From Chiloscyllium plagiosum (taxonomy: Eukaryota), in assembly GCF_004010195.1 (NCBI RefSeq), contig NC_057718.1, positions 95,831,147 to 95,851,331 on the forward strand: a stretch of DNA of 20,185 bases, in the 5' to 3' direction. Made by a program: the position numbers and the translations under genes. Shown piece by piece: positions 2,963-20,185 of the stretch. Numbering within the stretch: the first letter of the stretch is position 1; every line of letters starts with the position of its first letter. Below the pieces are notes generated by a model, which saw nothing but the letters and a program-made list of their open reading frames with translations, searched no databases and had not been told where the DNA came from.

Positions 2963-4218
2963 ATACTTACAGAAGAATGCTAATGTGTTAGAGCCAGTTC
3001 AAGAAAGGTTTACTTGATTAATAGCTGTATTGCCTGATTAGGGAAGGCTAGACATGTTATGTTTGTATCCTCCAGAGTTTACAAGAATCAGAGGTGACTT
3101 AATTAAACTATTGAAATCCTGATGATCTTGACTGGGTGGATATTGGAAAAAGGTTTCCTTTTGTGGGACATTCTAGAACTTNNTAAGAAGTTTCTATTTA
3201 AAACAGACATGAGGAAACATTTTTTTTCTCTCAGGACGTTGAGAGTTTCTGGAATTCCCTTCCTCAAAAGGCAGTGGATGCAGAACCTTTAAATATTTTT
3301 TAAGGCACAGACAGACAGATTCCTGAACATTTGAGGTGAAGGTGTAATGGAATATAAGTGAGTCCTTTGCTGAGCACATATCATTCAGAATCAAAGACCA
3401 GATGTTCAGAATATCATTTTAGCCTGTTCCTGTCCCACTGAACTTATCCCTTCCTATCTTGATTCTATTTTCTCTCCTATTTTTTTCAGTCTTTTCCCAT
3501 TCATCATCTGACGCTTTACATTTCTTCCTCCATTTCCACCTTCACTTCCCTAACCACCTCCTCTTCATCATGGATGTGCAATCCCTCTCTACATCCATTC
3601 CCCCAATGTGATAATCCGAAGGCTCTCTGCTTCTTCCTTGTAATGAACCCTGAATAGTCCCTGTCCATCACTGTCCTCCATTGCCTCACCAAGCACTTTC
3701 TCATTTGAATAACCTCTCCTTTACAATTTCTCTGAGTCACAGATTAAGCTATGAGTGCCTGCATGGATCCCAGCTTTGCCTGTTTCTTCATGGGGTATGT
3801 GGAACATTTCCTTGTTCCAATCTTACTCAAGCCTCATCCCAAACACTTGTCCAGGTGCTGCTTCCTGTTTTTGGCAGGAATTGGAAAACCATCAGTTTCA
3901 CTTCCAATTTCCATCCTTAACTCACCTTCACCTGTTCCACCTCTGATTCTTCCCTTCCCTAACTTTATCGTTTTGATTTCTGAAATTTCTGTCCAACAAC
4001 ATGCACGACAAACCCGCTGATGCCCATAGTTACCTCAACTACACCTTCTCATGCTCTGCTTCCTGTAAGGATTCCATCCCATTCTCCTTACTTCGCTGTT
4101 GCATTTGTTCTGATGATGCTTCCTTTCAAAGGATTGCCTCTGTCATGTTATCCTTTTTCCTTAAACAAAGATTCCCACATCCATCATGGTTGACAGAGTC
4201 CAAAGCCATGTCTGATCC

Positions 4219-5377
4219 GCGTGCAGATATATGACAGAGAAATGGCAGATGGAGTTCAATCTGGGTAAGTGTGAGGTGTTGCACTTTGGAAGATCAAATG
4301 TCAAGGAAAAATATACAGTTAATGGCAGGACCCTGAACAGCATTGATGTACAGAAGAATTTTGGGGTTCAAGTCCATAGTTCTCTGAAAGTGGCCACACG
4401 AGTAGATAGTATGGTAAAGAAGGCGTGTTGTATACTTTCCTTTTTTGGTCAGGGAATCGAGTACAAGAGTCAGGATGTTATGTTGTAGTTTTATAAGACT
4501 TTGGTTAGGCCATACTTAGAGTAGTCCATTCAATTCTGGTCACCACATGACAGGAAGGATGTGGAATCTTTGGAGAGGATGCAGAAGAGGTTTATCAGTG
4601 TGCTGCCTGGGGGGCATGGCGGCTAAGTGGTTAGCACTGCTGCCTCACAGTGCTAGGTACCAGGTTCGATTCCCACCTCAGGCAACAGTCTGTGTGGAGT
4701 TTGCACGTTCGTCCCGTGTCTGTGTGTGTTTCTTCTGGGTGCTCTGGTTTCCTCCCACAGTCCAAAGATGTGCAGGTCAGGTGGATTGGCTGCACTAAAT
4801 TACTCATAGTGTTAGCCAGGGGTAAATATAGGGTAGGGGAATGGGTCTGGGTGGGCTACTCTCTGGAGGGTCTGTGTGGACTTGTTGGGCCGCAGGGCCT
4901 GTGTCTGTCCTGAAGGGATTCTAATTCAAATTAGAGGGATAAGGATAGGCTAGAAAAACTCGGGTTGTTTTCTCTGGAGTGGCAGAGGCTGAGGGGAGAC
5001 TTGATAGAAGTCTATACAATTATGAGATGGATAGCTAGGGTTGATGGTCAGAACCTTTTTCCCAGAGTTGAAATGTCTAAAACTATGGGGCATGCATTTA
5101 AGGTGTAGGGGGAAAGTTCAAAGGAGAGGTGAAGAGTAGGTTTTTTACACAGAGAGGGGTAGGATTGCGGAATGCGCTGTCAGGGGTAGTGGTGGAAGCA
5201 GATACGATTGGGGAATCTAGGGGACTTTTAGGTGATCACATGAATATGCAGGGGATGGAGGAACATGGACCAAGGGCAGGCAAAAAGGATTGGTTTAATT
5301 TGGCGTCATGTTCAGCACAACATTGCGGGCTGAAGGGCCCATTCCTGTGTTGTGTCGTTCTATGTTCTGTGTTCTAT
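4219..5377 (+). mobile_element. CR1/HER1-type LINE 3' portion inserted in PLE A (split by a SINE at 4611-4929)
   Basis: KWQMEFNLGKCEVLHFGRSN...GVQVHSSLKVA...GIEYKSQDVML; ends in a tgttctat-like repeat tail at about 5357-5377. Confidence 0.92.
4611..4929 (+). mobile_element. tRNA-derived V-SINE (HE1-like)
   Basis: A-box-like GGCTAAGTGG, B-box GGTTCGATTCC, V-domain (gtgtggagtttgcacgtt...ggtttcctcccacagtccaaagatgtg) and a LINE-like 3' end. The CR1 reads tgctgcctgg|attagaggg across it. Confidence 0.92.
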
Positions 5378-5798
5378 CTCTTGCATTTCCACCCTCACCA
5401 CTTCCCTTCATCCCAGGACAGCAATAAAGTCCACTGGCCTTCGCATTCAAAGGATCATCCTCCACCACTCCCGCCACCTCCAGTAGGATTTCCCCAACAA
5501 ACACCCGCCCCTCCAATGTCAGCATTCCACAGGCATCATTCCCTCTGTGACACCCAGGTTCAGCTCTCCATCACTCCTAAAACTTCCTCACTCCCCCACA
5601 GCACCTACCCACACAATTACAGAAGACGCAATACTTGCCCGTTAACTTCCTCATTCTTCTTTGCCCAAGATCCCAAATATACCTTCCAGGTGAAGTAACA
5701 TTTGACTTGTAAAAACTGACAGTACTGCGGATGCTTGAAATCAGAAACAAAACCAGAAATTGCTGGAAAAGCTCAGCAGGTCCGTGGAGAGAAATCAG

Positions 5799-5836
5799 AG
5801 TTAACGCTTCGGCTGGAGTGACCCTTCCTCAGAACT
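5799..5836 (-). ncRNA. Degenerate minimal hammerhead ribozyme motif in the PLE B terminus
   Basis: AGUU-CUGAGGA-agggucacuccagcc-GAAGC-GUU-AACU. Stem I is perfect; GAAA is mutated to GAAG and stem II has decayed. Confidence 0.65.
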
Positions 5837-6653
5837 GATGGTAGCTAGGAAGATGCTGGTTTATATGCAGAATATAGAGTGGGAGAAGGGACTAAGGAGT
5901 AAATGATAGGTGAGAATAGAGCCCAAAGAGAGAGAAGAATAGTGGGACAGACAAACGAGTGGATAACGATCAGCCTGGGAGAATGAATAGCTGCTAATAG
6001 GGACAATTAATGGCAAACAATGGATAGTGTATAATACCAGATCATGTGATAACTGGGCTGGTGTGTGGGGTTTGGAGTAAGAACAAGGGAGAAGATGCTC
6101 TAAAATTGTTGAGCCCAATATTGAGTCCCAAAGGCTGTTGGGTTCCCAAGCGGATAATGAGGTGCTGTTCTTCCAGCCTGCACTGAGCGTCACTGGGACA
6201 CTGCAGCAAGCCTGAGACAGAGATGTTGGCCAGGGAACAGGGTGGGGAGTTGATGGGGCAGGCAACTGGAAGCTCAGGGTCTTTTTTTGTGAGTGGAATG
6301 TAGATGTTCTGCGAAGCTGTCACCCAGTCTATGCTTCATTTCCCCAAGGTAGAGGAGACCACATTGAGAGCAGCCAATGCAGTCGAATGGATTGTGGGAA
6401 GTGCAGGTAAAGTGCTGCTTCACCTGGAAGGTATGTTTGGGCCCTTGGATAGTGAGGAGGAAGGAGGTAAATGGATAGGTGTTACAGTTTGTGCTTTCAG
6501 GGAAAGGTGCTGTTGTGCTGTGGTGGTGGTGGTAGGGGTGGGGGATGGTGGTGGGAGGGGATGGTGCTGATGGAGTGAAGGAGGAGTGGGCCAGGGTGTC
6601 CTGGAATGAACTGTCCTTGCAGAAGGCTGACAGCAAAGGGGGGATGAGTATGT

Positions 6654-6862
6654 AACAAAAACAGAAGTTGCTGGAAAAGCTCAGCATCTGTGAAGAGAAA
6701 TTAGAGTTAACACTCCATGTCCAGTGACCCTTCTGCAGAGTTCTAAGGTCACCAGGTCTGAAATGCTAACTCTGATTTCGCGTCATGGCTGCTGCCAGTC
6801 CTGCTGAACTTTTCCAGCAACTTCTGTTTTTGTTTTCAATTTACAGCATCTGCAGTACTTTC
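6654..6862. mobile_element. Foldback PLE-terminus mini-insertion nested in PLE B
   Basis: Inverted arms 6654-6686 and 6802-6834 (32/33 complementary), two opposed degenerate hammerheads around 6740, a one-sided tail, and a diverged 14-bp TSD (6640-6653 vs 6863-6876, 11/14). Confidence 0.8.
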
Positions 6863-8321
6863 GGAGATGAATGTGTCTCTGATGGTGGCACCCTGCTGGA
6901 GGGGGCGGAAGTGGCAGCTAATGAATCTCTGGATGTGCATGCCGGTGGGATGGTAGGTGAGGACAAGGGGGACTCTATATCGCTGTTGTAGGAGGGAAGA
7001 GAGGGGGTGAGGGCTGAAGTGTGGGAGATAGGTCAGACCCAACTGAGGACCCTGTCAACTACGGTGCTGGGGAATCTTTGGTTGAGGAAGGAGGTTGGCA
7101 TTTTGGTGGCCCCCTTGTTGAAGTTGGCATCATCAGAACGTATGCGATGGAGATAGAGGAACTGGGAGAATGGAATACAGTCTTTACAGGAAGCAGGGTG
7201 TGATGATGTATAGCCAAGGTAACTGTGGGAGTCAGTGGATTTGTAATGTTTATTGATGGCCAGCCTATCCCTATAAATGGAAACAGAGATGTCGAGGAAG
7301 GGAAGGGTGGAGTCATGGATGGACCAGGTGAAGGTGAGAGCGGGTTGAAGTTGGAAGTGAAATTGTTAAACTTTTCCAATTCTAGATGGAGAGGGAACCA
7401 GCACTGATGATATCCATATCGTAGAGAAAGAGTTGTGGGTGTGGTCTGGAATAGGACTGGAACAAGGAATGTCCCACAAAGAGTCAGGCATAACCAAGGC
7501 CCATGCAGAGCAGCCATGGCCACCCCTCTGACTGGAAGAAAGTGAGAGGGGTTAAAGGGGAAGGTGTTCAGGGTGAGGATGGGCTTGGCCAGGCGGAGGA
7601 GGGTAGTAGTGGTGGTTGGTGTCAGTTCAGGACTTTTTCCTAGGAACAAACGGAGAGCCCTGAGACCGTCCTGACAGACGTGTAAAGGGATTGTATATCC
7701 ACGGTAAAGGGGAGGCAGCTGGTGCCCTCAAACTGGAAATTTAGAAACTGATGTAAAGCATCAGAGGAATCGCAGATGTAAGTGACTGGACTAATACATT
7801 TCACTTGTACTTCTTTCAATCTACTCTCTCATACTCGCTGCTCACAATGTGGTACTCATTACAGGGCTGAGACCCAACGGAGACTTGGTGACTGCTTTGG
7901 GAAAGCCTCCACTCTGCCCGCAGAAATGCCCTGGCCTTTCAATAGCTTGGCATTTCAACAAGCCATCTTGATCTTATGTCCATTTCCATCCTCGGCTCCA
8001 GAAAGGCTCATTTCGAAATGGAGGAACGACACCTCACTTTCTCCTTTGGCACTTTACATCTTTTAGCACTTAATATTGGGTTTGACAACTTCATCTTTTG
8101 CCCTTCATTTATTGTAATCTCCACCTCCCACTGCCGTATCTTGTGTGTGTTTCGTTGACATTGCTCTCAGAAGAGAGGATCCATTTTCTCCTTATCACAA
8201 ACACATTTATACCCATTGTACACTATTGCCTCTCTTTTACCACCTTTGGCAATCCCTTTGTCTTTTGCTCTGTTAAAAATCACACAACACCAAGTTATGG
8301 TCCAACAGGTTTAATTGGAAG

Positions 8322-8356
8322 CACTAGCTTTCGGAGCGCCGCTCCTTCATAAGGTG
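8322..8356 (-). ncRNA. Minimal hammerhead motif in the PLE C terminus (one core mutation)
   Basis: CAC-CUUAUGA-A-GGAGC-ggc-GCUCC-GAAAG-CUA-GUG. Stems I and II are perfect and stem III is the palindrome AGCU; CUGAUGA is mutated to CUUAUGA. Confidence 0.7.
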
Positions 8357-8737
8357 GTTGTGGAGTACACAAATGCAAGACACAGGATTTATAGCAAGAG
8401 TTTACAGTGTGATTTCACTGAAATTATACATTGAAACATACCTTGATTGTTTGTTGAGTCTTTCATCTGTTCGAATACCATGATAGTTTCACTTCTTTCA
8501 TGTCTAAATCACAAAACTTTAAAAAAAAAGTTGCATTCTCAGGTTAACTGTAACAATTGGTGTTAGCTGGATAATATGTTGAAGGTATTAGCCCCCTGTG
8601 TTCTCTGTCTGTGCCATAAAGTTTAGACTGATTCTAATCTAAAAAGTAAGATAACAGAGTCTTACATGAATTTATGCAGTTTTTGAGCAAAGTACAATGT
8701 AACTCTGCAAGTACAAATTCACCCCACAAACTTATAC

Positions 8738-9094
8738 GTGTGTGTGTGTGTGTCTGGGTTGGGGTTTTGTGAGTGTGAGAGAGAGAGAGCGTATATGTGT
8801 GTGTATATGAGTGTAGAGTGTCTTAAGTCTGTGAGGGGGTGCATGTGTGAATGTGAGAGTGAGTATGTCTGTAGGAGAGTGTGTGTGTGTCTGGGGTGGG
8901 GGGGTTGTGTCTGTGAGAGGGAGTGTATATGTGTGTGCGTGAGTGTAGAATGGTCTAAGTCTCTGAGAGGATGCCGGTGTGAGTGTGGGAGTGTGTGTGT
9001 CTGTAAGGGTGTGTGTGAATGTCTGTTAGCGTGTCTGTGTATATGTGTGCCCATGTATATGTGTGTGTATAGGAGTGTGTGTGTGTGTGTATAG
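8738..9094. repeat. GT/GA-rich low-complexity tract inside the PLE C 3' region
   Basis: Interrupted (GT)n/(GA)n with an internally duplicated unit (gagtgtaga..g...taagtct.tgag.gg.tgc..gtgtga) near 8809 and 8941. Confidence 0.9.
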
Positions 9095-9907
9095 TGCAAT
9101 GGTGGTCACCTGTAGTGTGACGTGAACCCAAGGTCCCGGTTGAGGCCCTCCCTATGGGTGTGGAACTTAGCTATCAGCCTCTGCCCAGCCACTTCTTGCT
9201 GCTGCGTGTCCCAAAGTCCGCCTTGGAGGATGGTCACCTGAAGGTCCAAGGTTGAATGGGAGGGAACCCTCCTGTCTGTTGATTGTTGTGCGGTGCCCAT
9301 TCATCTGTTGCCGTAGCCTTTGCTTGGTCCACTAAAGTAATGAGGTGTACTAATTCATTACGGACAAAGAATTGGATGTGAGATTTCCTGTCTTGGGAAA
9401 AATGATAACCAATACAACTAAGTCTTTGAGTAAACATTTTAATTTTGTACTGAATCATGAAATGGGTTATAATGACAAGTTTTTATTTGCTAAAGGAATG
9501 AAAAACTACATTTGTGCTTAATTTTGTGTTGTATCTGTATCTGAACAAGTTAATGTAATTCCGTAGAAGACATCAGCATTGATACAAATAATAGTGGCTC
9601 TCCGAAAGCTAGTGCTTCCAATTAAACCTGTTGGACTATAACATAGTGTTGTGTGAGTTTTAACTTTGTACACTCCAGTCCAACACCGGTATCTCCAAAT
9701 CTTTTGCTCTGGACACCCTCACTATCTGTTCCACTCACTCCTCCTTCCCCTCTGTCAACAGCATAAATCCACCATTTTCCAAATCTTGCAAATCTGAAGA
9801 TAGACATATCAGACTCAAAACATTTACTCTGCTTCTCACTCCACAGATGCTGCGAAAGCTGCTGAGTTTCTCTAGAATTTTCTGTTTTTGTACTAAGGCT
9901 GCTAAAA

Positions 9908-10193
9908 TCCACTAAAGTAACTTCAATTTCAGTCTGACTGAGGTGTACTAATTCATTACGGCCAAAGAATTAGATGTGAGATTTCCTGTCTTGGGAAAAA
10001 ATTATAACCAATATAACTAAGTCTTTGAGTAAACATTTTAATTTTGTAGTGTATCATGAAATGGGTTATAATGACAAGTTTTTACTTGCTAAAGGAATGA
10101 AAAACTACATTTGCGTTTAATTTTGTGTCATGTCTGTATCTGAACAAGTTAATGTAATTCCATAGAAGACATCAGCATTGATACAAATAATAG
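9908..10193 (+). repeat. Source copy of a local direct duplication (second copy at 9328-9594)
   Basis: About 95% identical by eye to 9328-9594. The left copy lacks 18 bp (9921-9938). Confidence 0.95.
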
Positions 10194-10919
10194 AGTTCTG
10201 TGGTGCCATATAATGTGTCAGACTTCAACATGAACTCTGCAGTAAAGCAAAAAAAAAGTCATGTTCCTACTGTGGGTACGTTAATACATTTTAATCAAGC
10301 ACAAATGCAGTGAAATTGCCTTTTGGTCTTCACCAGTACAGAGAGCTTTTTGTGTTGTACCCAGCCTAACCCACTAACTCTGGTTTTGTGCATGTGTAAT
10401 TAATTATAAGGAAATACTAAAACACTTGGGTAGATATTACTCTTCCACCAGATGTTCCATATGTGAGAATGTATTTACCCTTTTTTTTGAGTCAAGCATA
10501 ACAAAACTACTGTATTTGATCAGTGTTGTTTCTGTTTTCCTTCTGAACTATTCCCTGCGCTTTGAAGACCATATGGCCTTAGGAATGAAAATGTTGGAAC
10601 TGCTGTCAGTCAAGAAACATCTTGGGAACTACTGTTTGTACTGTACCATTGTGCAGCATTACAAGAAAGGGACTTTCCATGTGCTATTGACTGAAAAATA
10701 TACTCTAGGCGCTCAGATTTTAACATCAAGTAATGGTGTTAGATTTACATTTGAGAAGGGTTTGCCATTTTGTTTACATTTCACGCCGATATCCTGCAAG
10801 CTTTATACTTGCATGATATATCCTTATCGGATGGCTCAAAGACCACTTTGAATGTAATCTCATAGAATGACTTTTGGAACAGATGAAGCTATTGATATTT
10901 GACTTCAGCTAGTTAAATA

Positions 10920-11214
10920 CGGTGGCTCAGTGGTTAGCACTGCTGCCTCACAGCACCAGCGTCCCAGGTTTGATCCCAGCCTCAGGTGATTGTCTGTGTG
11001 TAGTTTGCACGTTCTCCCTGTGCCTGCGCGGGTTTCCTCTGGGTGCTCTGGTTTCCTCCCCAGTCCAAAGATGTGCTGGTTAGGTGAATTGGCCATGCTA
11101 ATTTGCCCATAGTGTTAGATGCATTAGTCAGAGGGAAATGGGTCTGGGTGGGTTACTCTTTGGAGGGTTGGTTTGGGCTGAAGGGCCTGTTTCTACACTG
11201 TAGGGAATCTAATC
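10920..11214 (+). mobile_element. tRNA-derived V-SINE (HE1-like)
   Basis: A-box TGGCTCAGTGG, degenerate B-box GGTTTGATCCC, V-domain, aatct-repeat tail, and TSD taaata at 10914-10919 and 11215-11220. Confidence 0.93.
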
Positions 11215-11357
11215 TAAATATGCATTACAGAACATGAGAAAAGTAATGAGTAAGATTTGATCTATTGAGATCATGCACATTTCGCCTTTATGTAAACTTA
11301 AACTAATTTAATTAATGTCCCCCCAAGAGCTGGTCTACATGGCTAAAAGATCAAGTG

Positions 11358-11509
11358 GGAGAAAGTGAGGACTGCAGATGCTGGAGATCAGAGCTGAAAA
11401 ATGTGTTGCTGGAAAAGTGCAGAAGGGCTAATGCCCGAAACGTCGATTCTCCTGCTCCTTGGATGCTGCCTGACCTGCTGCGCTTTTCCAGCAACACATT
11501 TTTCAGCCG
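11358..11509. mobile_element. Foldback PLE-terminus mini-insertion with a partial hammerhead
   Basis: Inverted arms 11393-11422 and 11478-11507; AGA-A-GGGC-uaau-GCCC-GAAAC-GUC at 11421-11444; TSD ta(a/g)aagatcaagtg at 11344-11357 and 11510-11523. Confidence 0.87.
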
Positions 11510-12758
11510 TAGAAGATCAAGTGTACAACACGGTTCAAAATTCCTCCCTGAACTCCAGATCAGGTTGTGAATTGGATTGGACAAAACATTCTTCAACCTT
11601 TGTTGTCTCCATAGAGATGATTAGGTCCCAATGCTACAGAGCCATTATGTCCCATTTATCATCTAGACTCTTGTTTCACAATCTGGATGTTGTCGGTATT
11701 AAGATAGTACAAAAGATCACACAACTGTTTTTCATCCAAATGTTACTAACTTCTTTTAATGTCAACTTAATCTACATTTCCACTGTGAGGTGAGCAAAAA
11801 CGAAACTTCCAATCTCTGTATGACCTTGAAAAGTGTTAAATCTGTCACTGTTTACCCCCCTTCTGTTTTTATTTATATTATCAGTGTTATTTGGCATTGA
11901 TGTCCACATGTGATGTTAGCTTTAAATTTAGGTTTCAAAGCTCTTCATCAACCTTGCTCTGAAAAACAAATTTGTACAGTATTTTCTATAAACCGGAATC
12001 ATTAAACATAAACCTCATTAATAACCTCATTGATAATCACTCAGCTTTTTGTGTTCCACGTTTGCTAATAGATACCCATTCATTAGGCACACATGTTTCA
12101 CATTTCCTTTCCCAATGTGCATTTTGTTACTTTAATTCATGTTAAAAATCCATCTGCCACTCCTTAGGCTCTCCGTTTAGTTTCTACGAATGCCTTTGAA
12201 TGTTGTTAATTTCCCTTAGGTGGTTCTAATGATTTGGGTTTTGGCTTTCAAGACCAAACCCAATCAAAAAGGCTCTATAATTCAATTTTCTGTACAGACT
12301 GCCCTGGGTTAGGAAGAAGCCTGACCCCACCCCCCCCCCCCGCCCCCCCGCCTTTTGAGGCCCAGACTTGGTGATGTGCACAGTTGCACGAGTGTCCAAA
12401 GCAAAAGGCCAGTGGGCTGATAAAAATTGATCCTTGCTACTTGTTTGAGTACAGGGCATCACTGAGAGGTGACCTTCAGTTAAAACATGGCATTGGGGAA
12501 GGGGGAGGTGGGGACCGGTTGGAATGGGGCAAGGCGAACCTGATGACTGTCTTGCGAGGTGGCTGATCTGTGAAAGGGGTCCTTTTGATGGGTCAAGGCA
12601 CTACTTTGTAGTTTTAAAAGGGACCTAATGCCTATTCTAGGCATTGGTAGTGCCAATGTAGAATAGGAATGGAGACCAACTGTCTGCTGTCTTAATATAC
12701 TTTGTGCCCTAACAACAGCAGCAATATGTACTGCTCAGAGTCTAACCAAAATAACTCT

Positions 12759-13382
12759 GCATCACAGGTAGGCAGGGTGGTTAAGAAGGTGTTTAGCACT
12801 TGCATTCATTGCCAGACCACAGGAATTGGGACGTCATATTGAGGTTGTACAGAACATTGGCAAGGCTTCGTCTCGAATGTTGTGTCCAGTTCCGGTCACT
12901 CTGTTATAGGAAGGAAAAACTGGAAAGGGATCAGGATAGATTTGCTAGGATGTTACCAGGAATGGAAGGTTTGACTTATTAAAAATACAGTGGGACTTTT
13001 TTCACTGGAGCATAGGTGGACGAAGGGTGACCTTATAGAATCATGAGGAGCATAAGATAAGGGTCTTATCCTCAGGGTGGGGGAGTTGAAAACTACAGGG
13101 TATATTTTTAATGTGAGAGGCAAAAGACTTAAAAAGGACATGAGGGGCAACATTTTTACACAGAATGGTTCACATGTGGAATGAACTTCCTGAGGAAGTG
13201 GTGGATGCGGGTACAGTTACAACGTTTAACAGACATTTGAATGAGTAAATGAATAAAAAATGTTTGGAAGAATATGGGCCAAGCACAGGCAAGTGGGAAT
13301 GGTTTAGTTTGGGAACATGGTCGGTGTGAACTGGTTGGACCAAAGGGTCTGGTTCAATGTTGTATGTTTCCATGACTCTGTG
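12759..13382 (+). mobile_element. CR1/HER1-type LINE 3' fragment
   Basis: WDVILRLYRTLARLRLECCVQFRSLCYRK...RFARMLPGMEGL, then a 3' UTR ending ccatgactctgtg. Confidence 0.9.
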
Positions 13383-13577
13383 CTAATTCATAGTTTGGAA
13401 GAAGTACTTGGTGTATGTCATCAGACACAATTATGTTTCAAGTACCTAGCAGAAATATAAGGTTGTCTCATTATCTTTATTATTGAGGTCCATTCTTAAA
13501 AAAAAGGAACAAGCAGAAATTAATTAGCTGAACATAAGTACACCTTTTAATAATGGTCTTCTGGTACAAACTTTGAA

Positions 13578-13925
13578 TCAGTGTAGCTCTTTTGTCTCTG
13601 GATCACAAAGTTCTGGTTCAAGTCTAACCCCTGGATTGATAGTTTAGGCTAACATTTCAGTGCAATCTTGAGGGAGCGCTGCACTGTTGACGTTGGGACC
13701 ATTCAAATGAGACACTAAACCCAGGCCACGACTGTGCGCACAAAATATCCAACAACTCAAGCTCACCTTTATCCTTCAGTACTGTCACTTAAGCAGATTA
13801 ACTGGCTGTTCTTGTTGTTTCTTTAGGGACCTTACTGCAGGCCAATGGGTCATTGTGTTTCTACACTGCAAACAGTGAATGACACGGGTTGTAAGTGATT
13901 TGGGACATCCTGAAATCAGAAAAGG
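13578..13925 (+). mobile_element. Ancient tRNA-derived SINE with a Deu-like domain (SacSINE1-like)
   Basis: B-box GGTTCAAGTC at 13615-13624; Deu-like core tgagggagcgctgcactgt...atgagacactaaacccaggcc at 13669-13727; 3' tgtaagtgatttgggacatcctga. Confidence 0.72.
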
Positions 13926-14040
13926 GACAATTCTTATCTGTACCATCTTTTTTTTACGTTATATTGGTTCAGTCAGCTTTAAGAAGGAGCTGAATGATTG
14001 TGATGAGTCATCAACTAAAGTTGTGGCAAACACAAATCAA

Positions 14041-14077
14041 CATTCCTGATGAAGGGCTTTTGCCCGAAACATCGATT
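14041..14077 (+). ncRNA. Minimal type I hammerhead motif
   Basis: cauuc-CUGAUGA(14046-14052)-A-GGGC-uuuu-GCCC-GAAAC-AUC-gauu. The triplet GUC is changed to AUC, consistent with CpG decay, which breaks the ACGU palindrome. Confidence 0.78.
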
Positions 14078-14175
14078 CTCCTGCTCCTCGGATGCTGCCT
14101 GACCTGCTGTGCTTTTCCAGCACCACTCTAATCTTGGCTCTGATCTCCAGGGCCGGCAGTACCCACTTCCGCCTA
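14041..14175 (+). mobile_element. Solo PLE terminus beginning at the hammerhead
   Basis: Same family sequence as 11358-11509, 15841-16036 and 19967-20185 (ctcctcggatgctgcctgacctgctgtgcttttccagca), plus a tail. Confidence 0.88.
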
Positions 14176-14220
14176 CTTATGTTCCCTGTCAAATTGCTAG
14201 GGATTCCCTGACGAGCAAAT

Positions 14221-14387
14221 AAACCAAAAGGACTGCGGATGCTGGAAATCAGAAAGAAAAAACGAAAAATCAGTTCTTCAGTTCTGAAGGAGGGTCACAG
14301 GACCAGAAACGTTAACTCTGTTTTCTCTCTATAGACGCTGCCAACGCTACTGGATTTTTGCAGCAATATTTGTTTTTGTTTCTGATT
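14221..14387. mobile_element. Foldback PLE-terminus mini-insertion (family of PLE B) with a hammerhead motif
   Basis: Tail plus short inverted arms (aatcagaaa.../...tttctgatt); AGUU-CUGAAGG-agggucacaggacca-GAAAC-GUU-AACU at 14280-14317; possible TSD agcaa(a/g)t at 14214-14220 and 14388-14394. Confidence 0.78.
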
Positions 14388-14669
14388 AGCAAGTTTGTCC
14401 TGTAAGTAACTGTATACTAAACGGTCCAAAAGATGCTCAGACTTGCTTCTCATTCTCTGCTATGTTGGCAGGTTGTTCAAGAGCGATAGTTAGAATGTCG
14501 CAATTAACAGCGGCACTCCTAGGTTGGTTGAGAGGAAAATAGGTCGCCATTCCCTCTCTTGATCACTCTCCAACGCAACCCTGCTCTTCTTTGCATGTGT
14601 GCGATACTACTCAGATTTGATGGTGATACCCAAAGCAAACATCCTACGACCAGAGTCAAGATCATACAT

Positions 14670-15370
14670 GAATTAGAATTAGAATTAGCTTTAATTTCAC
14701 GTGTTCAAATGATTACAGTGAAAAAATCTTTAAGTCGCCAATTATGGTGCCTAGTTACTGACTCTGAAGTATAAATTCCTTGGGAGAAAACTAGAAAAAT
14801 AAAGAAGTTAAAAAGTCCAGTGTGACAGACCATTGGAATAAATTAGAAAAATAAAGAAATAAAAAGTTCAGAATAACAAACCTTCCAACAGAGTCTGTGT
14901 TGGCACCTAACCTCTAGTCCAGGCCAAGCCTTGCCTCCAGACTGTGTTGGGCTTCATCTTACAACTCCCAAGGCTGGGAGACTGCCCTGGAATCATCTCG
15001 AGGATGGACGTCCATGCTGAGGCCACACTGCGTCGCCAAAAGACTGCCACGCCAGGCCAAGAGGCCGCTTCACCGAGTCAACGTATTGCCAAGTTGAGTC
15101 TGAGCTGAGGCCAAGAGTTTGAGTCCATGTTGAGGCTGGGAGTCCACGCTGAGGTTGGGATTCTGAGCTGAGGCCAAGAGTTCAGGGCATTGCCGAGAAG
15201 AAGGAAGGAAAGGAAAACCACAAAAGAGAGAAAAAAAGAAAAGCAAAAAGAAACAGACGGAGTGGACAAACCCCGCTGCCGCCTTGGATCTGACAAGGAT
15301 TACCCATTGGATCAAGCACCGTGGGCGATTGGCACCAAAGAAATCTCCATCGAGGTGTCAAAATCTTCGA
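14670..15370 (-). mobile_element. Unclassified non-autonomous retroposon-like repeat with a (TTCTAA)n tail
   Basis: gaattagaattagaattag at 14670-14688, internal direct repeats (about 14790-14875 and 15095-15183) and a purine-rich tract. No coding motif. The 5' boundary is uncertain (15290-15370). Confidence 0.5.
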
Positions 15371-15788
15371 GAGAGCCAAAGAGATAGGATGGTTGGCAAA
15401 AGAATTGTGAGGTAAGTAAAATTAACATTTATAAATGATCAGTTCCTGAATAGTTAATACTGAAGAAAGTAATTTCGATTGGCACTTTGAGCCAGAAATT
15501 TGTGATGAATGTTTCACACTCAATGACTTAATACAACTAATTCTAGTCGGCTAGTGGAATTGAACATCCAGTTGTCTTCTATCCTCCTTCAAATCCTTAT
15601 TAATGCCTGGTTATGATTCTGTAGACAGCAATTGCTCTCTACTACGTCAAGGAAAGCCCCAGTAATTTATCAGCAGCAAGCATCAGCAAATTATTTAATT
15701 GTAGGTACCAGGGCCAAACTTGATTCTGACCTCAACCCAACTTGCAAACATGTACGTTCAAGTACACAAGATAGAAGCTAGCAGTAGG

Positions 15789-16097
15789 AGCCTCTCGTGG
15801 TATAGTGGTAGTGTCCCTAACTTTGGTTGTGTTATGTCCTAGGCGAAAATGAGTATTGTAGATGCTGGAGATTAGAGTCAAAATTAGAGTGGTGCTGGAA
15901 AAGTACCACAGGTCAGGCAGCATCCGAGGAGCAGGAAAATTGATGTTTCGGGCAAAAGCCCTTCTGAAACATCGATTTTCCTGCTCCTTGGATGCTGCCT
16001 GACCTGCTGTGCTTTTCCAGCACCACTCTAATCTTCTGTTATGTCCTGCCTACTCCAGATGTGGGTCAGAATATCTACAGAGAGGTTGATTACAAAT
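15789..16097 (+). mobile_element. Short degenerate tRNA-derived SINE interrupted by a PLE mini-insertion
   Basis: A-box-like TGGTATAGTGG at 15798-15808 followed by tagtgtccct; resumes after the TSD as gcctactccagatgtg...aggttgatta. Confidence 0.55.
15841..16036. mobile_element. Foldback PLE-terminus mini-insertion
   Basis: About 67-bp inverted arms 15883-15949 and 15966-16032 around a loop containing hammerhead stem II (GGGCAAAAGCCC); one-sided tail; perfect 11-bp TSD tgttatgtcct at 15830-15840 and 16037-16047. Confidence 0.9.
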
Positions 16098-17084
16098 TAG
16101 CTAGATATTATTGGCAGTCATCAACTCCTTTGTGCAGGAGCCAATTGTTAGTCCCTTAGCTCACCCAACTTAACGCAGATCCAGAACTGTATCGGTGCCA
16201 TTCTGGTCTACACGCCTTCGTGCCTTTAACCTACTGCTCATTGGTGGGTATAGATTTTCATTCATAATTACTGCCATCTTTATGGTCTACTGTGGAAACT
16301 ATTTAATTGGAGGGCACTCTCCAGCTGCAATGTTTAACTTTGACAAACCCACAACACTGACTTAGTTGTCATGACAAAATGATATAGCCTAGGATAGATT
16401 TGGAATAATTGGTGCTGGTTTTGGTATTCTGCGTTGTTGGCTTTAAATGTAAAAAGAAAAGTGGATGTACGTGTGCTTTGCCAAAATAAGGAATAAACTA
16501 GGTAATTTAAGGATGAGTTGATGGGCAGAGTCCTGATTTTCCAGTGTAGTCTCTTCTGGCAATGTTGTATTTCCCAAGCCCGTTCATGCTATTTATTTGC
16601 AACAAGAAGGCTTCAAATTCTTATTTTTGTGTAGTTACTCACTCAATGTATAAATGCTTTTGCTCTGAATTGTTTCCACGCTGAAATCTAGGAATACGTT
16701 AACCAGGACCATATAACAAGTGAGAATGAACATGAAAATAAAGCAATTTAGAGAAAATTGTTTTCTTTTGTAGCTAATTTCAATAATTGTTACGCGTTTC
16801 TATGGTGAGGGCCCCTCGGAAATGCAGACACACTCTAACAGACCTCTGGAAATAATGGCAGGTTCCTGGACACCCTCCAACAGAAAGTGTCAGCTACAAA
16901 CAGGAAAGTATTTTCGATTAATGTAAAGCAGCAGAAATATCAAAACAGTCAGACAGCCAGCACCTACAGCAATAGAATTCACAGATCGATGGAAATCTGA
17001 TGATTGCATGAAAATGCAGGAACCATCCATAAGTGTTTGCTACAGAGTCAGTTTCAAAACCTTTAAGAGTTGGAAGCACAGAGT

Positions 17085-17189
17085 CATAGAGATGTACAGC
17101 ACGGAAACAGACCCTTCAGTCCAACTTGTCCATGCCGACCAGATATCCTAACCTAATCTAGTCCCATTTGCCAGCACTTGGCCCATATC
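17085..17189 (-). mobile_element. Severely 5'-truncated CR1/HER1 3' UTR
   Basis: Reverse complement is homologous to the 3' end at about 13270-13380; TSD cagagt at 17079-17084 and 17190-17195. Confidence 0.85.
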
Positions 17190-18524
17190 CAGAGTAAGCG
17201 AACCATGTTTACCAAAGAGGAAATTCAGTGGGGCGATGGAATGAGAATATGGAATTTTAATTTGTGTGACATAATGCATGAATGACGGGCTAATGTTTTT
17301 CTCATGTGGTAACACATTTTAATGCAAGCTAATGGTGCAATTTTGGCAAGCAGGAAAGACATATGTGGTAAATATTTTGTTTAAGTACAGTGCCTTTAAG
17401 TAGGTTGAAGAAGCATGATGTTTATATGGTCTTGGTTACAGAAGTGTTAAATTGACTGATTTCGGTTAACTAGTTTGTCATTGCTACAATTTGTGTATGC
17501 CAATTCAGCACTGATTAGTGCTGGGTCATGGAAGTTTATGCCTTCCAAGAGTTACGTAAAACACATTTTGAGAATCTGCATAGGTGTTACACAGTAGAAA
17601 TGTTTGTCCTGCTTAGAATATTGTTAAGTGAACACTAGTTGACCCATAATGTGAGTAAGCACATTGCAGCAATTACAATCCACTGATTTTTAATGCATTA
17701 CTTTTCTTTTTTTTTGATCAAATACTGGAGAAAGACTAGAAACAAAAGCCGCTGGATGTCAATGCAGCAATTTGAGGATTGTTCAGACAGAGCACTATTA
17801 TACTGGGCTGGAGTTAAATCCAATCTTCACAATTGAAACAGAATGCTGTTGCTTTTTACTGTTCCTTGGAAAAGCATACAGTATTAGGAATTGCACTGTG
17901 CATTTTGTCCACTTGAGTCTACCATACACAGCTCTACCAGCAAAGGGAGTTTGAGAAAAAAAAATTAAAGGAAGCCATCTTTTAGCAGCATGTAGAATTC
18001 TGATTCTGAATGCTTTTTACTGAACATGTTACTGTTTCCATCTAAGAACATAAATACGGACTTGGAATTTGTGGTCCATCGTTTTGTCCACACCCTTCAG
18101 TTAATTGAACTGTAACAACTAACACTTAATCTAGGGAATAAAATTGATGGAATACAACAACATGAGGAGTTCACGTGTCTGGTGTGGATTGTGCAGGAGA
18201 AACTATTGCTATTGATTCTGTGGACTGAGGACAAAACAGCTGCAAATGAGATGTCAGTGCAGGATATTATCAAAATTTGGTTGGAAGGCCAAAAGGCATA
18301 CCCATGGAATGTAAAACAAATCTTTGTCTAAGATCTTTGAAACCTGAGAGAGATTTCTTCACACTAATGTGGCTTCCCTGTAGCTCTGATTTTAATGTTC
18401 TTCCCCCCTTTACCAAAGAATACTGATTGTGCTGGTTCACAGGCATTGTCTGGTTGAATGGCATTTGATATTGTGCATCCTAGACACTGAGCCCTAGGAT
18501 GCTTGATTTACCAAGAATGTAGTA

Positions 18525-18742
18525 CAGTCAGTTCCTCTATAATGTGATGGTGGTGTTTTGTGCAACTCTGCAGTACAGAAAAATCACCCTTTGAAAACAG
18601 TGCTTAAATTGTGGGTGATGTAATTGCATTACGGCCAACACACGTTTTAAAAGTTTGCACTTTAGAAAGAGCATCCCCAATTTGTCAACCACTTTACAGC
18701 GAGTTTGCATTGAAGAAACACGCGTTATAGCAGAATGACCTG
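18525..18742. mobile_element. Tc1/mariner (Tigger/MER6-like) MITE, 218 bp
   Basis: TA on both sides (18523-18524, 18743-18744); imperfect TIRs cagtcagttcctctataatgtg vs the reverse complement caggtcattctgctataacgcg. Confidence 0.8.
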
Positions 18743-18957
18743 TATGACTATTTGTACATACATCCTCAAAAATGTCAATCAACTGACACCTCCAGTGGAA
18801 GAATTTGTAATCAACATCAGCCAGTGCAATAGCCAAGTTGATAGAAAAATGGTAGAACATTGGTTTCCAAGTGTGAACAAGTGATTTGAGTCAAAGTTGG
18901 GGAAAGAGATTGGGGGTGGCATGTGACCAATTTTCAAAAGAAACTTCCTGTGTCATA

Positions 18958-19212
18958 TAGGCTGTGAAGGCAAAGCCAGCATTTATTGTCCATGTCTCAT
19001 TGTCCTTGAAAAAGTGAACATGAATGACTTTCCCGAAAGGACATTAACAATCAAATGTAGCACTATGGCCCTTTCACCATTAGTAATTTTTCTTTTTCAT
19101 AAGAATGTGTATTTCATCAAATTAATTTAGATTCCTCAGCCACCATTGAGGGGATTTGAACTCATCTCATTTGATTAGTAATATAGACCTCTGTAATTCC
19201 TGTGCAATTATA
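18958..19212 (-). mobile_element. Highly decayed SINE with a tRNA-like head and LINE-derived tail
   Basis: Minus-strand B-box-like GAGTTCAAATCCC near 19151-19163; ggcaaagccagcatttattgtccat...tgtccttgaaaaagtg resembles a common elasmobranch LINE/SINE 3' segment (recalled). Confidence 0.45.
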
Positions 19213-19344
19213 CAAGAGGCATGCAACTCCCATTAATAGTCAAGATGTCTCCTTGCAAATATCTATTTACATGGATTCTTGGCTAGAGCACTATATTGAG
19301 AATCATTCTGTTTTTCCAGTATATATCCCACCATTGTCCCAGAT

Positions 19345-19965
19345 AAGATCATGACTTCCGTTTAATGATAAAAGACCACAGAAAGCTACAGAACAGAGCA
19401 ATTTAGGAGTCCCCATCCATGAATCACAAAAAACTAACACCAACATCCAATGGGTGATTGGGAAGGCAAATGGAATGTTAGTCTTTATTTCAAAAGGAAT
19501 GGCATAAAAAAGTAGAGACGTTTTGTGGAAACCATACAAGTCAGACCTTAGCTGGAGTATTGTGAGCAGTTCTGGTCGTCTTAACTAAGGAAAGGTATTG
19601 GACGCAGTCCTGAGAAGCTTCACTCAGCTAGTAATGCATATGGATGGATTTTCTTATGAAGAGATGTTGAATAGTTTGGGTCTGAACTCATTGGCGTTTA
19701 GGAGAATGAGAGGAAACCCTAATTGAAACATTCAAGGTTCTTAGCAGAATGACATGTTGGATGTGGAGAAGTTGTTTCACCTGGTGGGAGAGCCTGGAAC
19801 CAGAGGGTAAAATCTCAAAGTAAGGGGCCACACATTTAAACCAGAGAGGAAGAGGAATTTCTTCTCTCTTAGAGGGGAGGGAATCTGTGAACCCTTCACC
19901 GCAGAGGACTGTTGAGGATGGATCATTATTATATTCAAGGTGAGATAGACAGACTTTTAATCACA
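19345..19965 (+). mobile_element. Old CR1-type LINE RT C-terminal fragment, interrupted by a PLE at about 19966
   Basis: IGKANGMLVFISKG, LEYCEQFWS and RRMRGN-like motifs with stops and frameshifts. Confidence 0.85.
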
Positions 19966-19966
19966 A

Positions 19967-20185
19967 CTGAAAAATGTGTTGCTAGAAAAGCGCAGCAGGT
20001 CAGGCAGCATCCAAGGAGCAGGAGAATCGACGTTTCGGGCATAAGCCCTTCTTCAGGAATGAGGAAGGTATGCCAAGCAGGCTAAGATAAAAGGTAGGGA
20101 GGAGGGACTTGGGGGAGGGGCGTTGGGAATGCGATAGGTGGAAGGAGGTTAAGGTGAGGGTGATGGGCTGGAGTGGGGGGGGGGC
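19967..20185 (-). mobile_element. PLE 3' terminus, continuing beyond the window
   Basis: Near-identical to the arm sequence at 11421-11507, in reverse; hammerhead followed by a G-rich (+ strand) 3' UTR. Confidence 0.9.
20024..20061 (-). ncRNA. Minimal type I hammerhead ribozyme motif with an intact core
   Basis: cauuc-CUGAAGA(20056-20050)-A-GGGC-uuau-GCCC-GAAAC-GUC-gauuc; palindromic stem III ACGU; predicted cleavage between 20029 and 20028; stem I is weak. Confidence 0.82.

Follow-up and report, generated by a model that had tools for sequence, protein, structure and literature searches.

We analysed a window of 20,185 nucleotides of Chiloscyllium plagiosum (contig NC_057718.1), for which twelve minimal hammerhead motifs from three families of Penelope-like elements (PLEs) had been predicted. 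All twelve sites were present within a few bases of their predicted positions, but the full footprint of the motif was found in only seven. The sites derive from nine insertions, five of which are head-to-head double arms. The features of the window are:

5713..7790, minus strand: old 5'-truncated PLE of family 2, probably Neptune-type, with tblastn and HMM matches
7790-6100, minus strand: RT end, PF26215 region, linker remnant and GIY-YIG of the same element, frameshifted, the ORF split by the insertion at 6654-6862; 3' UTR and terminal repeat follow
5799..5838, minus strand: family 2 minimal hammerhead; C3 at 5832, GAAG replacing GAAA, stem I AGUU/AACU intact, stem II with 3 of 5 pairs; initiator-like word at 5838-5832
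6654..6862, two arms: head-to-head family 2 insertion within the old ORF; arm 6739-6654(-) with a motif carrying three core changes, arm 6747-6862(+) with half a motif; candidate 11-bp target duplication, not above chance
7797..8270, plus strand: second old family 2 copy, likewise probably Neptune-type; GIY-YIG remnant and start of the 3' UTR, resuming at 9712-9891
8273..9328, minus strand: long arm of family 3; GIY-YIG C-terminus at 9328-9109, 3' UTR with GT-rich repeats, hammerhead at 8356-8322 (C3 at 8353, G5 to U, 5 of 5 stem II pairs, stem I of 3 bp, AGCU)
9341..9594, plus strand: duplicate of the downstream DNA 9939-10193 (94.5% identity) between the two family 3 arms
9593..9699, plus strand: short arm of family 3 with only the 3' half of the motif; the whole insertion 8273-9699 has a 12-bp target duplication at 8261 and 9700
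9712..9891, plus strand: remaining 3' portion of the copy at 7797-8270, holding a family 2 motif in decay (C3 at 9794; G12 changed to A; stems largely unpaired)
11353..11507, two arms: head-to-head family 1 insertion with a 14-bp target duplication (1 mismatch); stem II, GAAA and GUC are present on arm 11418-11507(+), an intact CUGANGA is not
14041..14178, plus strand: short family 1 copy beginning at the 5' arm of stem I; 12 of 12 core positions, the palindrome degraded to ACAU, cleavage predicted between 14073 and 14074
14219..14390, two arms: head-to-head family 2 insertion; motif on arm 14278-14390(+), C3 at 14284, A9 to G, 4 of 4 stem I pairs, ACGU
15840..16035, two arms: head-to-head family 1 insertion with a 14-bp target duplication (1 mismatch); half a motif on each arm, 15965-15840(-) and 15966-16035(+)
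19960..20185, minus strand: long family 1 copy running off the window, with the only complete minimal hammerhead (20060-20025, C3 at 20056, predicted cut between 20029 and 20028); initiator-like word at 20062-20056

At 6654-6862, 14219-14390, 14041-14178 and 9593-9700 (the last taken alone), the candidate target duplications did not exceed the random control. The window contained neither a same-family, same-strand tandem pair suited to form a dimer in cis nor head-to-tail tandem units each with a complete hammerhead.

Inventory of the motifs

Twelve core positions were checked per site. There was no mismatch at 14046(+) and 20056(-), one at 5832(-) (GAAG), 9794(+) (AAAA, with largely unpaired stems), 14284(+) (A9 to G) and 8353(-) (G5 to U), and three at 6738(-). 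The CUGANGA half was missing at 11418, 15965(-), 15966, 6747 and 9593. A complete core was thus present in 2 of 12 sites, of which only 20056(-) retained the ACGU palindrome. The inventory amounts to one complete motif, one full core with a broken palindrome, five full-length mutants and five halves, so that speaking of twelve hammerheads is an overstatement; the accompanying remark that most copies are mutated or partial was correct. The 4-nt palindrome said to take the place of stem III was intact at five sites, with all three families represented, but broken at seven. Six of these seven breaks are changes of CG to CA or of CG to TG and represent CpG decay. The extra A following the core was seen in six of the seven full copies. 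The G10.1-C11.1 pair closing stem II is G-C in families 1 and 3, and G-C or G-U in the majority of family 2. In sum, a minimal type I architecture was supported.

A sequence-only pattern matched the window twice, a count reached by 5 of 100 shuffles. A descriptor of core plus stems gave two matches compared with none in each of 20 shuffles, three matches compared with a shuffle mean of 0.2 when one mismatch was allowed, and four compared with 1.9 at two mismatches, which is not above chance. Therefore only 3 of the 12 sites stand alone as motifs, and the remaining ones were identified as putative hammerheads through homology to these three copies. An Rfam search of the window gave 11 matches at E<=10, none of them to a hammerhead family; miRNA-like matches at 15902-16012, all below the gathering score, were discarded as the hairpin formed by the head-to-head arms. 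The hammerhead fold is not the predicted minimum-energy fold of the monomer, and none of six folding z-scores passed -2.

The original prediction held that the stems covary among the families and that the ribozyme fold is under selection. In a register set by hand, the letters of stems I and II indeed differ among the three families while pairing is mostly kept. Yet the covariation was not significant: the score of 0.270 was reached by 58 of 500 shuffles, and the 66.7% of paired positions in the alignment test by 193 of 500, the family 3 row being misregistered in both. Mismatches to the column majority were as frequent in the core as downstream of it, with 7/49 and 35/233 in family 2 and 2/43 and 10/240 in family 1. 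Because core and downstream positions are equally mutated, the copies themselves are not under selection, and decay of the core at the background rate implies that selection acted on the source elements.

Penelope-like origin and family states

A PLE origin was supported for families 2 and 3 by RT, PF26215 and GIY-YIG homologs upstream of the motif, their hammerheads sitting in a terminal repeat downstream of RT/GIY-YIG remnants of apparent Neptune type. For family 1, which has no ORF in the window, the tie to PLEs consists of the 3' sequence it has in common with family 2. The linker motif C-x4-C-x2-C was found in 11 of 27 family 2 homologs (most others being partial) and in two of four family 3 homologs inspected, and decayed remnants of it lie near 6490 and 5625. 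This motif is described as a mark of Neptune and Nematis (Craig et al., bioRxiv 10.1101/2021.04.23.441226). Assignment to a Neptune-type clade is therefore probable from the homolog linkers and the decayed remnants, with Nematis carrying the same mark. HMMER searches with the GIY-YIG piece of family 3 yielded 43 homologs, and a word-indexed homolog search with the same piece yielded none. Pfam searches with 13 + 5 frames of the window gave nothing above the curated cut-off.

Public reads showed the state of the families across the genome. The change of 14071 from A to G was present in 1550 of 2073 RNA reads and in 47-56% of the contig depth of three DNA sets. At 14290, 31 of 34 RNA reads had A in place of G, and at 14305, 62 of 66 had C or T in place of A. 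The other core positions are absent among the 40 read differences listed, 43 further differences existing. Thus for families 1 and 2 the genome-wide majority state restores the broken positions, including the palindrome of family 1. The 5' half of the family 3 motif occurs in one copy only, with G5 to U. More than 120,000 contigs per DNA run align to one 431-bp stretch, a figure that is not a copy number. Scans of metagenome collections turned up no further copies of families 1 and 2, and scans for family 3 in metagenomes as well as in prokaryote genomes and viral contigs were equally negative.

Taken together, we favor the view that Neptune-type PLEs left these sites in a cartilaginous-fish genome as dead copies of their 3' terminal repeat (pLTR). 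Upstream ORF remnants, the 3' sequence common to families 1 and 2, target duplications, head-to-head arms, intact majority states and neutral decay all argue for it, and we put its probability, including the cutting scheme outlined below, at roughly 0.85.

5' ends and cleavage

A stable stem III is missing from PLE minimal hammerheads, for which cleavage in dimers held by the 4-nt palindrome has been proposed, an activity described as weak and perhaps aided by an element protein; for Xenopus, only one of nine tested dimers is reported to cut. In the scheme we propose, two motifs of the same family would pair in the RNA of the source element and cut after GUC, GUU or CUA. Reverse transcription would begin 50-105 nt downstream of the motif and usually stop within it or at its 5' edge, mostly on uncut RNA, giving short copies, which CpG decay of ACGU would subsequently disable.

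The 5' ends of the copies bear on this scheme. They scatter in the window from -36 to +50 relative to the cut; seven of the 11 short arms begin at -36 to -8 and none at the cut itself. Sequence upstream of the cut is thus kept in most copies, as expected if the motif were retained as a folded protein-binding or promoter signal and cutting in vivo were rare or never occurred. In the Anolis carolinensis element PAc, insertion in vitro is described as unaffected by catalytic mutations, and RNA-seq reportedly revealed no ends at the cut site (PMC11167929); Naiad PLEs are said to thrive without hammerheads (bioRxiv 10.1101/2021.04.23.441226). On the other hand, the catalytic core is kept in the majority states of two families, and core mutants of PAc lose cleavage, with partial rescue by a double mutant (PMC11167929). 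In addition, the first base after the predicted cut is the commonest partner position among the inversion joints listed. We therefore regard a purely signalling role as doubtful.

Most family 1 copies begin where stem I has its 5' edge, on a word resembling an initiator, and so do most of the top-listed inversion joints. It is conceivable, although we consider it unlikely, that stem I of families 1 and 2 has a second role, its 5' arm serving as a Pol II initiator, and that the RNA begins at the first base of the ribozyme. Run-off reverse transcription from the tail would then account for the great number of short copies, some templates, a minority, would be pre-cut, and the inverted joints from 14041/2 to 14074 would be genomic fossils of cleavage in vivo. 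Two other sources of these ends were rejected for family 1. Splicing to an acceptor at stem I, the situation in D. virilis, does not agree with the long copy, where no AG adjoins stem I, and with the heterogeneous flanks at 14042-14043. Fold-back priming via stem I should place the joint near 14078, not at 14074. A search for a pile-up of RNA ends in one polyA single-cell library, a type poorly suited to the question, showed none.

The short family 1 copies might also be an independent, non-autonomous mini-element or retrozyme of about 85 nt, with tandem or circular RNA, that amplifies itself with PLE enzymes and does not arise by truncation. Their loose ends are most frequent at 14041-14043 and 14126, where the flanks agree poorly (0.30-0.42), joints running head-to-tail from 14126 to 14042 occur in 15, 16 and 17 contigs of the three DNA sets, and PLE-derived retrozymes have been described, one chondrichthyan genome included. 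Such an element is nevertheless quite improbable: the unit is nowhere arrayed in tandem in the window, family 1 also has a long copy (20056), the scatter of 5' ends extends to both sides of the cut, partial tandems are a normal PLE product (bioRxiv 10.1101/2021.04.23.441226), and the motif is minimal, in contrast to the canonical type described for retrozymes. Host selection of the window copies as functional ribozymes, to which the density of 12 sites in 20 kb and the family reads on both strands in one RNA run might point, is already largely refuted and scarcely credible, since 11 of 12 sites either are broken or halved or no longer have the palindrome, the core has decayed as fast as the background, and a tandem pair for dimerization in cis is absent from the window.

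Comparison with known systems

The motif, its extra nucleotide after CUGANGA, the G-C closing pair and the palindrome are the PLE minimal hammerhead consensus already published in 2014 (CUGANGAH, G..C closing stem II, GAAAN, palindrome, NUH; Cervera and De la Pena 2014, PMC4209133). As reported, our observations extend a known PLE feature to cartilaginous fish and add little to it. Their value lies in the material: the very many copies in this genome allow 5' junctions to be counted per base, and such counts bear on whether PLE hammerheads cut in vivo and on where the template RNA starts. If the reading of the joints between the stem I edge and the cut site is true, they are the trace of in vivo cleavage that was sought without success in Anolis RNA (PMC11167929). 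Our literature search, with subscription papers outside its scope, found no report of shark PLE hammerheads or of an initiator located at the motif.

With the metazoan motifs of PMC4209133 the present ones share the consensus, a short stem I and opposite-strand pairs; there too a genome holds several families, and most motifs are single and come from truncated PLEs. A turtle example has the GAAAG-CUH arrangement of family 3. Among the entries seen of its Fig. S3 and Table S1 there is no cartilaginous fish, and in the text covered 5' ends are not said to cluster at stem I. The density here is far above the cases given there, judged by the >120,000 contigs per DNA run on 431 bp, again not a copy number.

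Non-LTR retrozymes (Cervera and de la Pena 2020, PMC7229834; Li et al., bioRxiv 10.64898/2026.07.22.740005) are similarly non-coding, PLE-related and equipped with a type I hammerhead. They occur in one chondrichthyan genome, and head-to-tail joints of the 85-nt unit are present here in reads at low counts. Unlike retrozymes, the copies of the window form no tandem array; they occur singly or inverted and adjoin remnants of PLE ORFs. The supplements of the Li et al. preprint may list these families.

RT, linker zinc finger and C-terminal GIY-YIG correspond to Neptune PLEs as described by Craig et al. (bioRxiv 10.1101/2021.04.23.441226), and 5' truncation, an adjoining inverted 5'-truncated copy and a tail at one end to PLE insertions in general, although most insertions here are cut down to arms of 70-140 nt. 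PAc belongs to the Poseidon clade, with its ORF starting inside stem II (Frangieh et al. 2024, PMC11167929), whereas the families of C. plagiosum are probably Neptune-type. The two nevertheless agree, as far as PAc is described there, in a hammerhead within the pLTR, a presumed start of reverse transcription shortly downstream of it, uncut RNA as the probable main template, and AT-rich targets.

Integrity and evolution of the hammerhead sites

All twelve sites described in the original prediction as minimal hammerheads of Penelope-like retroelements (PLEs) were present, yet the full footprint was found in only seven of them, the CUGANGA half being missing in five. At the 12 core positions tested 14046(+) and 20056(-), named like all sites by window position, had no mismatch, while 5832(-), 9794(+), 14284(+) and 8353(-) had one each and 6738(-) had three. 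Core, both stems and the palindrome, i.e. the 4-nt ACGU or AGCU that replaces stem III, occurred together at 20056 only. The palindrome was intact at 5 of 12 sites; in six of the seven broken ones CG had become CA or TG, as is typical of decay at methylated CpG.

A descriptor of core plus stems detected 2 sites in the window versus 0 in each of 20 shuffles. Allowing one mismatch the values were 3 versus 0.2, and with two mismatches 4 versus 1.9. The bare sequence pattern yielded 2 sites, a number equalled in 5 of 100 shuffles, and an Rfam search of the window returned no hammerhead match. The remaining sites were identified through homology. At the family 2 head-to-head junction, where arms of opposite strand meet, a short palindrome (14275-14290) creates another core-like word, this one on the minus strand.

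The stems had been proposed to covary between families. In a hand register the three families did pair for the most part with different letters, with one U-U mismatch in stem I of family 1 and a stem I of 3 bp in family 3, but the formal count was not significant. A MAFFT alignment of the seven copies, in which family 3 was misregistered by one column, gave 66.7% paired positions (equalled in 193/500 shuffles) and a covariation score of 0.270 (reached in 58/500). Because the flanks of family 3 do not resemble those of families 1 and 2, its stems are analogous by position, with homology unproven. Selection on the ribozyme fold was not apparent in the present copies. Within families the core was as mutated as downstream sequence (7/49 versus 35/233 and 2/43 versus 10/240 positions), which argues for neutral decay; any selection would have acted on the active source elements.

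Elements and insertions

By block count about 5.9 of the 20.2 kb are PLE-derived; much of the remaining repeat-rich vertebrate DNA presumably consists of LINE-like and SINE-like repeats. A putative SINE-like repeat of ~300 bp occurs in two copies (4618-4931 and 10921-11219, 78% identical). The closest homologs with a species name of the retroelement proteins were from stingray (50-52% identity). The frame 7365-7036(-) matched 27 proteins; PF26215 was present in most and RT or GIY-YIG in several. By tblastn, a continuous remnant running from RT to GIY-YIG could be traced over 7790-6100(-), and the 5832 motif lies downstream of it. Likewise, the piece 9300-9109(-), upstream of the 8353 motif, had 43 relatives, among them a GIY-YIG protein and an RT protein of 881 aa. 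Homologs of both family 2 and family 3 ORF pieces contained the linker C-x4-C-x2-C, described as a mark of Neptune and Nematis (bioRxiv 10.1101/2021.04.23.441226). Family 1 had no ORF within the window, but the sequence downstream of its motifs is common to families 1 and 2. Further ORF remnants lacking a terminal motif, 3413-4200(+) and 5433-5712(+), may be one copy split by LINE-like/SINE-like insertions at 4200-5430. A possible exon, 15297-15416(+), ends in a GTAAGT donor; its frame had no Pfam match and a host gene was not found.

The twelve motifs represent nine insertions, five of them head-to-head. Two of the latter had target duplications of 14 bp:

11353-11507: head-to-head insertion, 14-bp target duplication with one mismatch
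15840-16035: head-to-head insertion, 14-bp target duplication with one mismatch

Such a score was equalled by 1 in 150 random pairs; two other insertions had weak candidates only. Both family 3 motifs belong to a single insertion, 8273-9699. The 12-bp duplication on either side of it (8261-9711 in all) has no further occurrence in the window. Enclosed in the insertion is a 254-bp copy (9341-9594) of downstream DNA (9939-10193) located ~240 bp past its right end, an arrangement pointing to template switching onto neighbouring DNA as the element integrated. The family 3 3' UTR also carries a GT-rich 132-bp tandem duplication (8742-9078). The insertion split an older family 2 element into 7797-8270 and 9718-9891, which aligned collinearly with the long family 2 copy, with scores of 176 and 96 versus shuffle maxima of 74 and 54; narrower sub-tests of this alignment did not exceed shuffles. 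Thus, 9794 is the terminal motif of that element. Nesting of PLE in PLE was also seen for the family 2 hairpin 6654-6862, which interrupts the ORF of an older element of the same family, and at 5713 as at 8273-9699.

Source motifs and 5' ends in public reads

RNA reads and DNA contigs from 4 of 24 listed runs were compared with 13990-14420 at 80% likeness. In family 1, position 14071 was G in 1550/2073 RNA reads and 47-56% of contig depth, restoring ACGU, and the only core change among the differences listed was at the free N7. In family 2, A was read at 14290 in 31/34 RNA reads (65-71% of depth), and C or T at 14305 in 62/66, which gives back a closing pair, G-C or G-U. Among the differences listed, the majority states of families 1 and 2, the two families covered, were thus intact at these broken positions; scans of metagenomes, prokaryote genomes and viral contigs found no other family 3 copies. 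Each DNA run had 128,000 to 151,000 matching contigs; although not a copy number, this indicates very abundant families.

Loose ends before family 1 peaked at 14041, 14042 and 14043 (1292, 969 and 657 contigs in X1, similarly in X10 and X17), the first count including longer copies since the reference copy begins there. An agreement of 0.30-0.36 indicated mostly unrelated flanks. The peak falls on the 5' strand of stem I. A heptamer with core base C3 as its last position matches YYANWYY, the initiator consensus, at 20062-20056(-), 5838-5832(-) and 14278-14284(+), the +1 A being the first base of stem I. This match, noticed post hoc, involved 3/7 full copies (both long copies and 14284, none of family 3) against a background of 1.3% per position, with the last base fixed by the core and families 1 and 2 related. 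An internal promoter is known from Penelope of D. virilis (PMC2377424), but its start precedes an intron whose end lies at helix I (PMC4209133).

Nine of the ten opposite-strand joints listed (at least 395 others exist) began at 14041-14043. Partner position 14074, the first base past the predicted cut, was found in 17, 22 and 15 contigs of three DNA sets, and other partners among these ten in at most 9 per set; some joints went uncounted, the three organisms are related, and amplification of a single ancestor could raise the count of a joint. Over 13990-14420, 14074 was not among the top loose ends and the RNA run showed no pile-up of ends. That the stem I 5' arm doubles as initiator and the inverted joints to 14074 record cleavage in vivo is doubtful, and we give this combination about one chance in five. 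In the reads over 14041-14126, 15-17 contigs of each DNA set joined copies of an 85-nt family 1 unit head to tail, and such joints would be natural dimers.

Comparison with known systems

The minimal hammerhead, with its extra nucleotide, closing pair and palindrome, has been defined before; its monomers reportedly do not cleave and its dimers cleave weakly (PMC4209133). As a dimer would swap stem I arms, only partners of the same family should work; the window holds no same-family tandem pair. In an Anolis element cleavage required the protein, the main in vitro template was uncut RNA, and RT started internally just downstream of the motif (PMC11167929). The short arms of the window fit these findings: of 11 arms, seven start between 8 and 36 nt upstream of the predicted cut site and two downstream of it, with no start at the site itself; the other two could not be placed well.

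The literature searched held no account of shark PLE hammerheads, and the species list in Fig. S3 of PMC4209133 names no cartilaginous fish, but PLE-related repeats with a hammerhead are described in one chondrichthyan (bioRxiv 10.64898/2026.07.22.740005). Taken together, the sites are real, ordinary examples of a known PLE feature.
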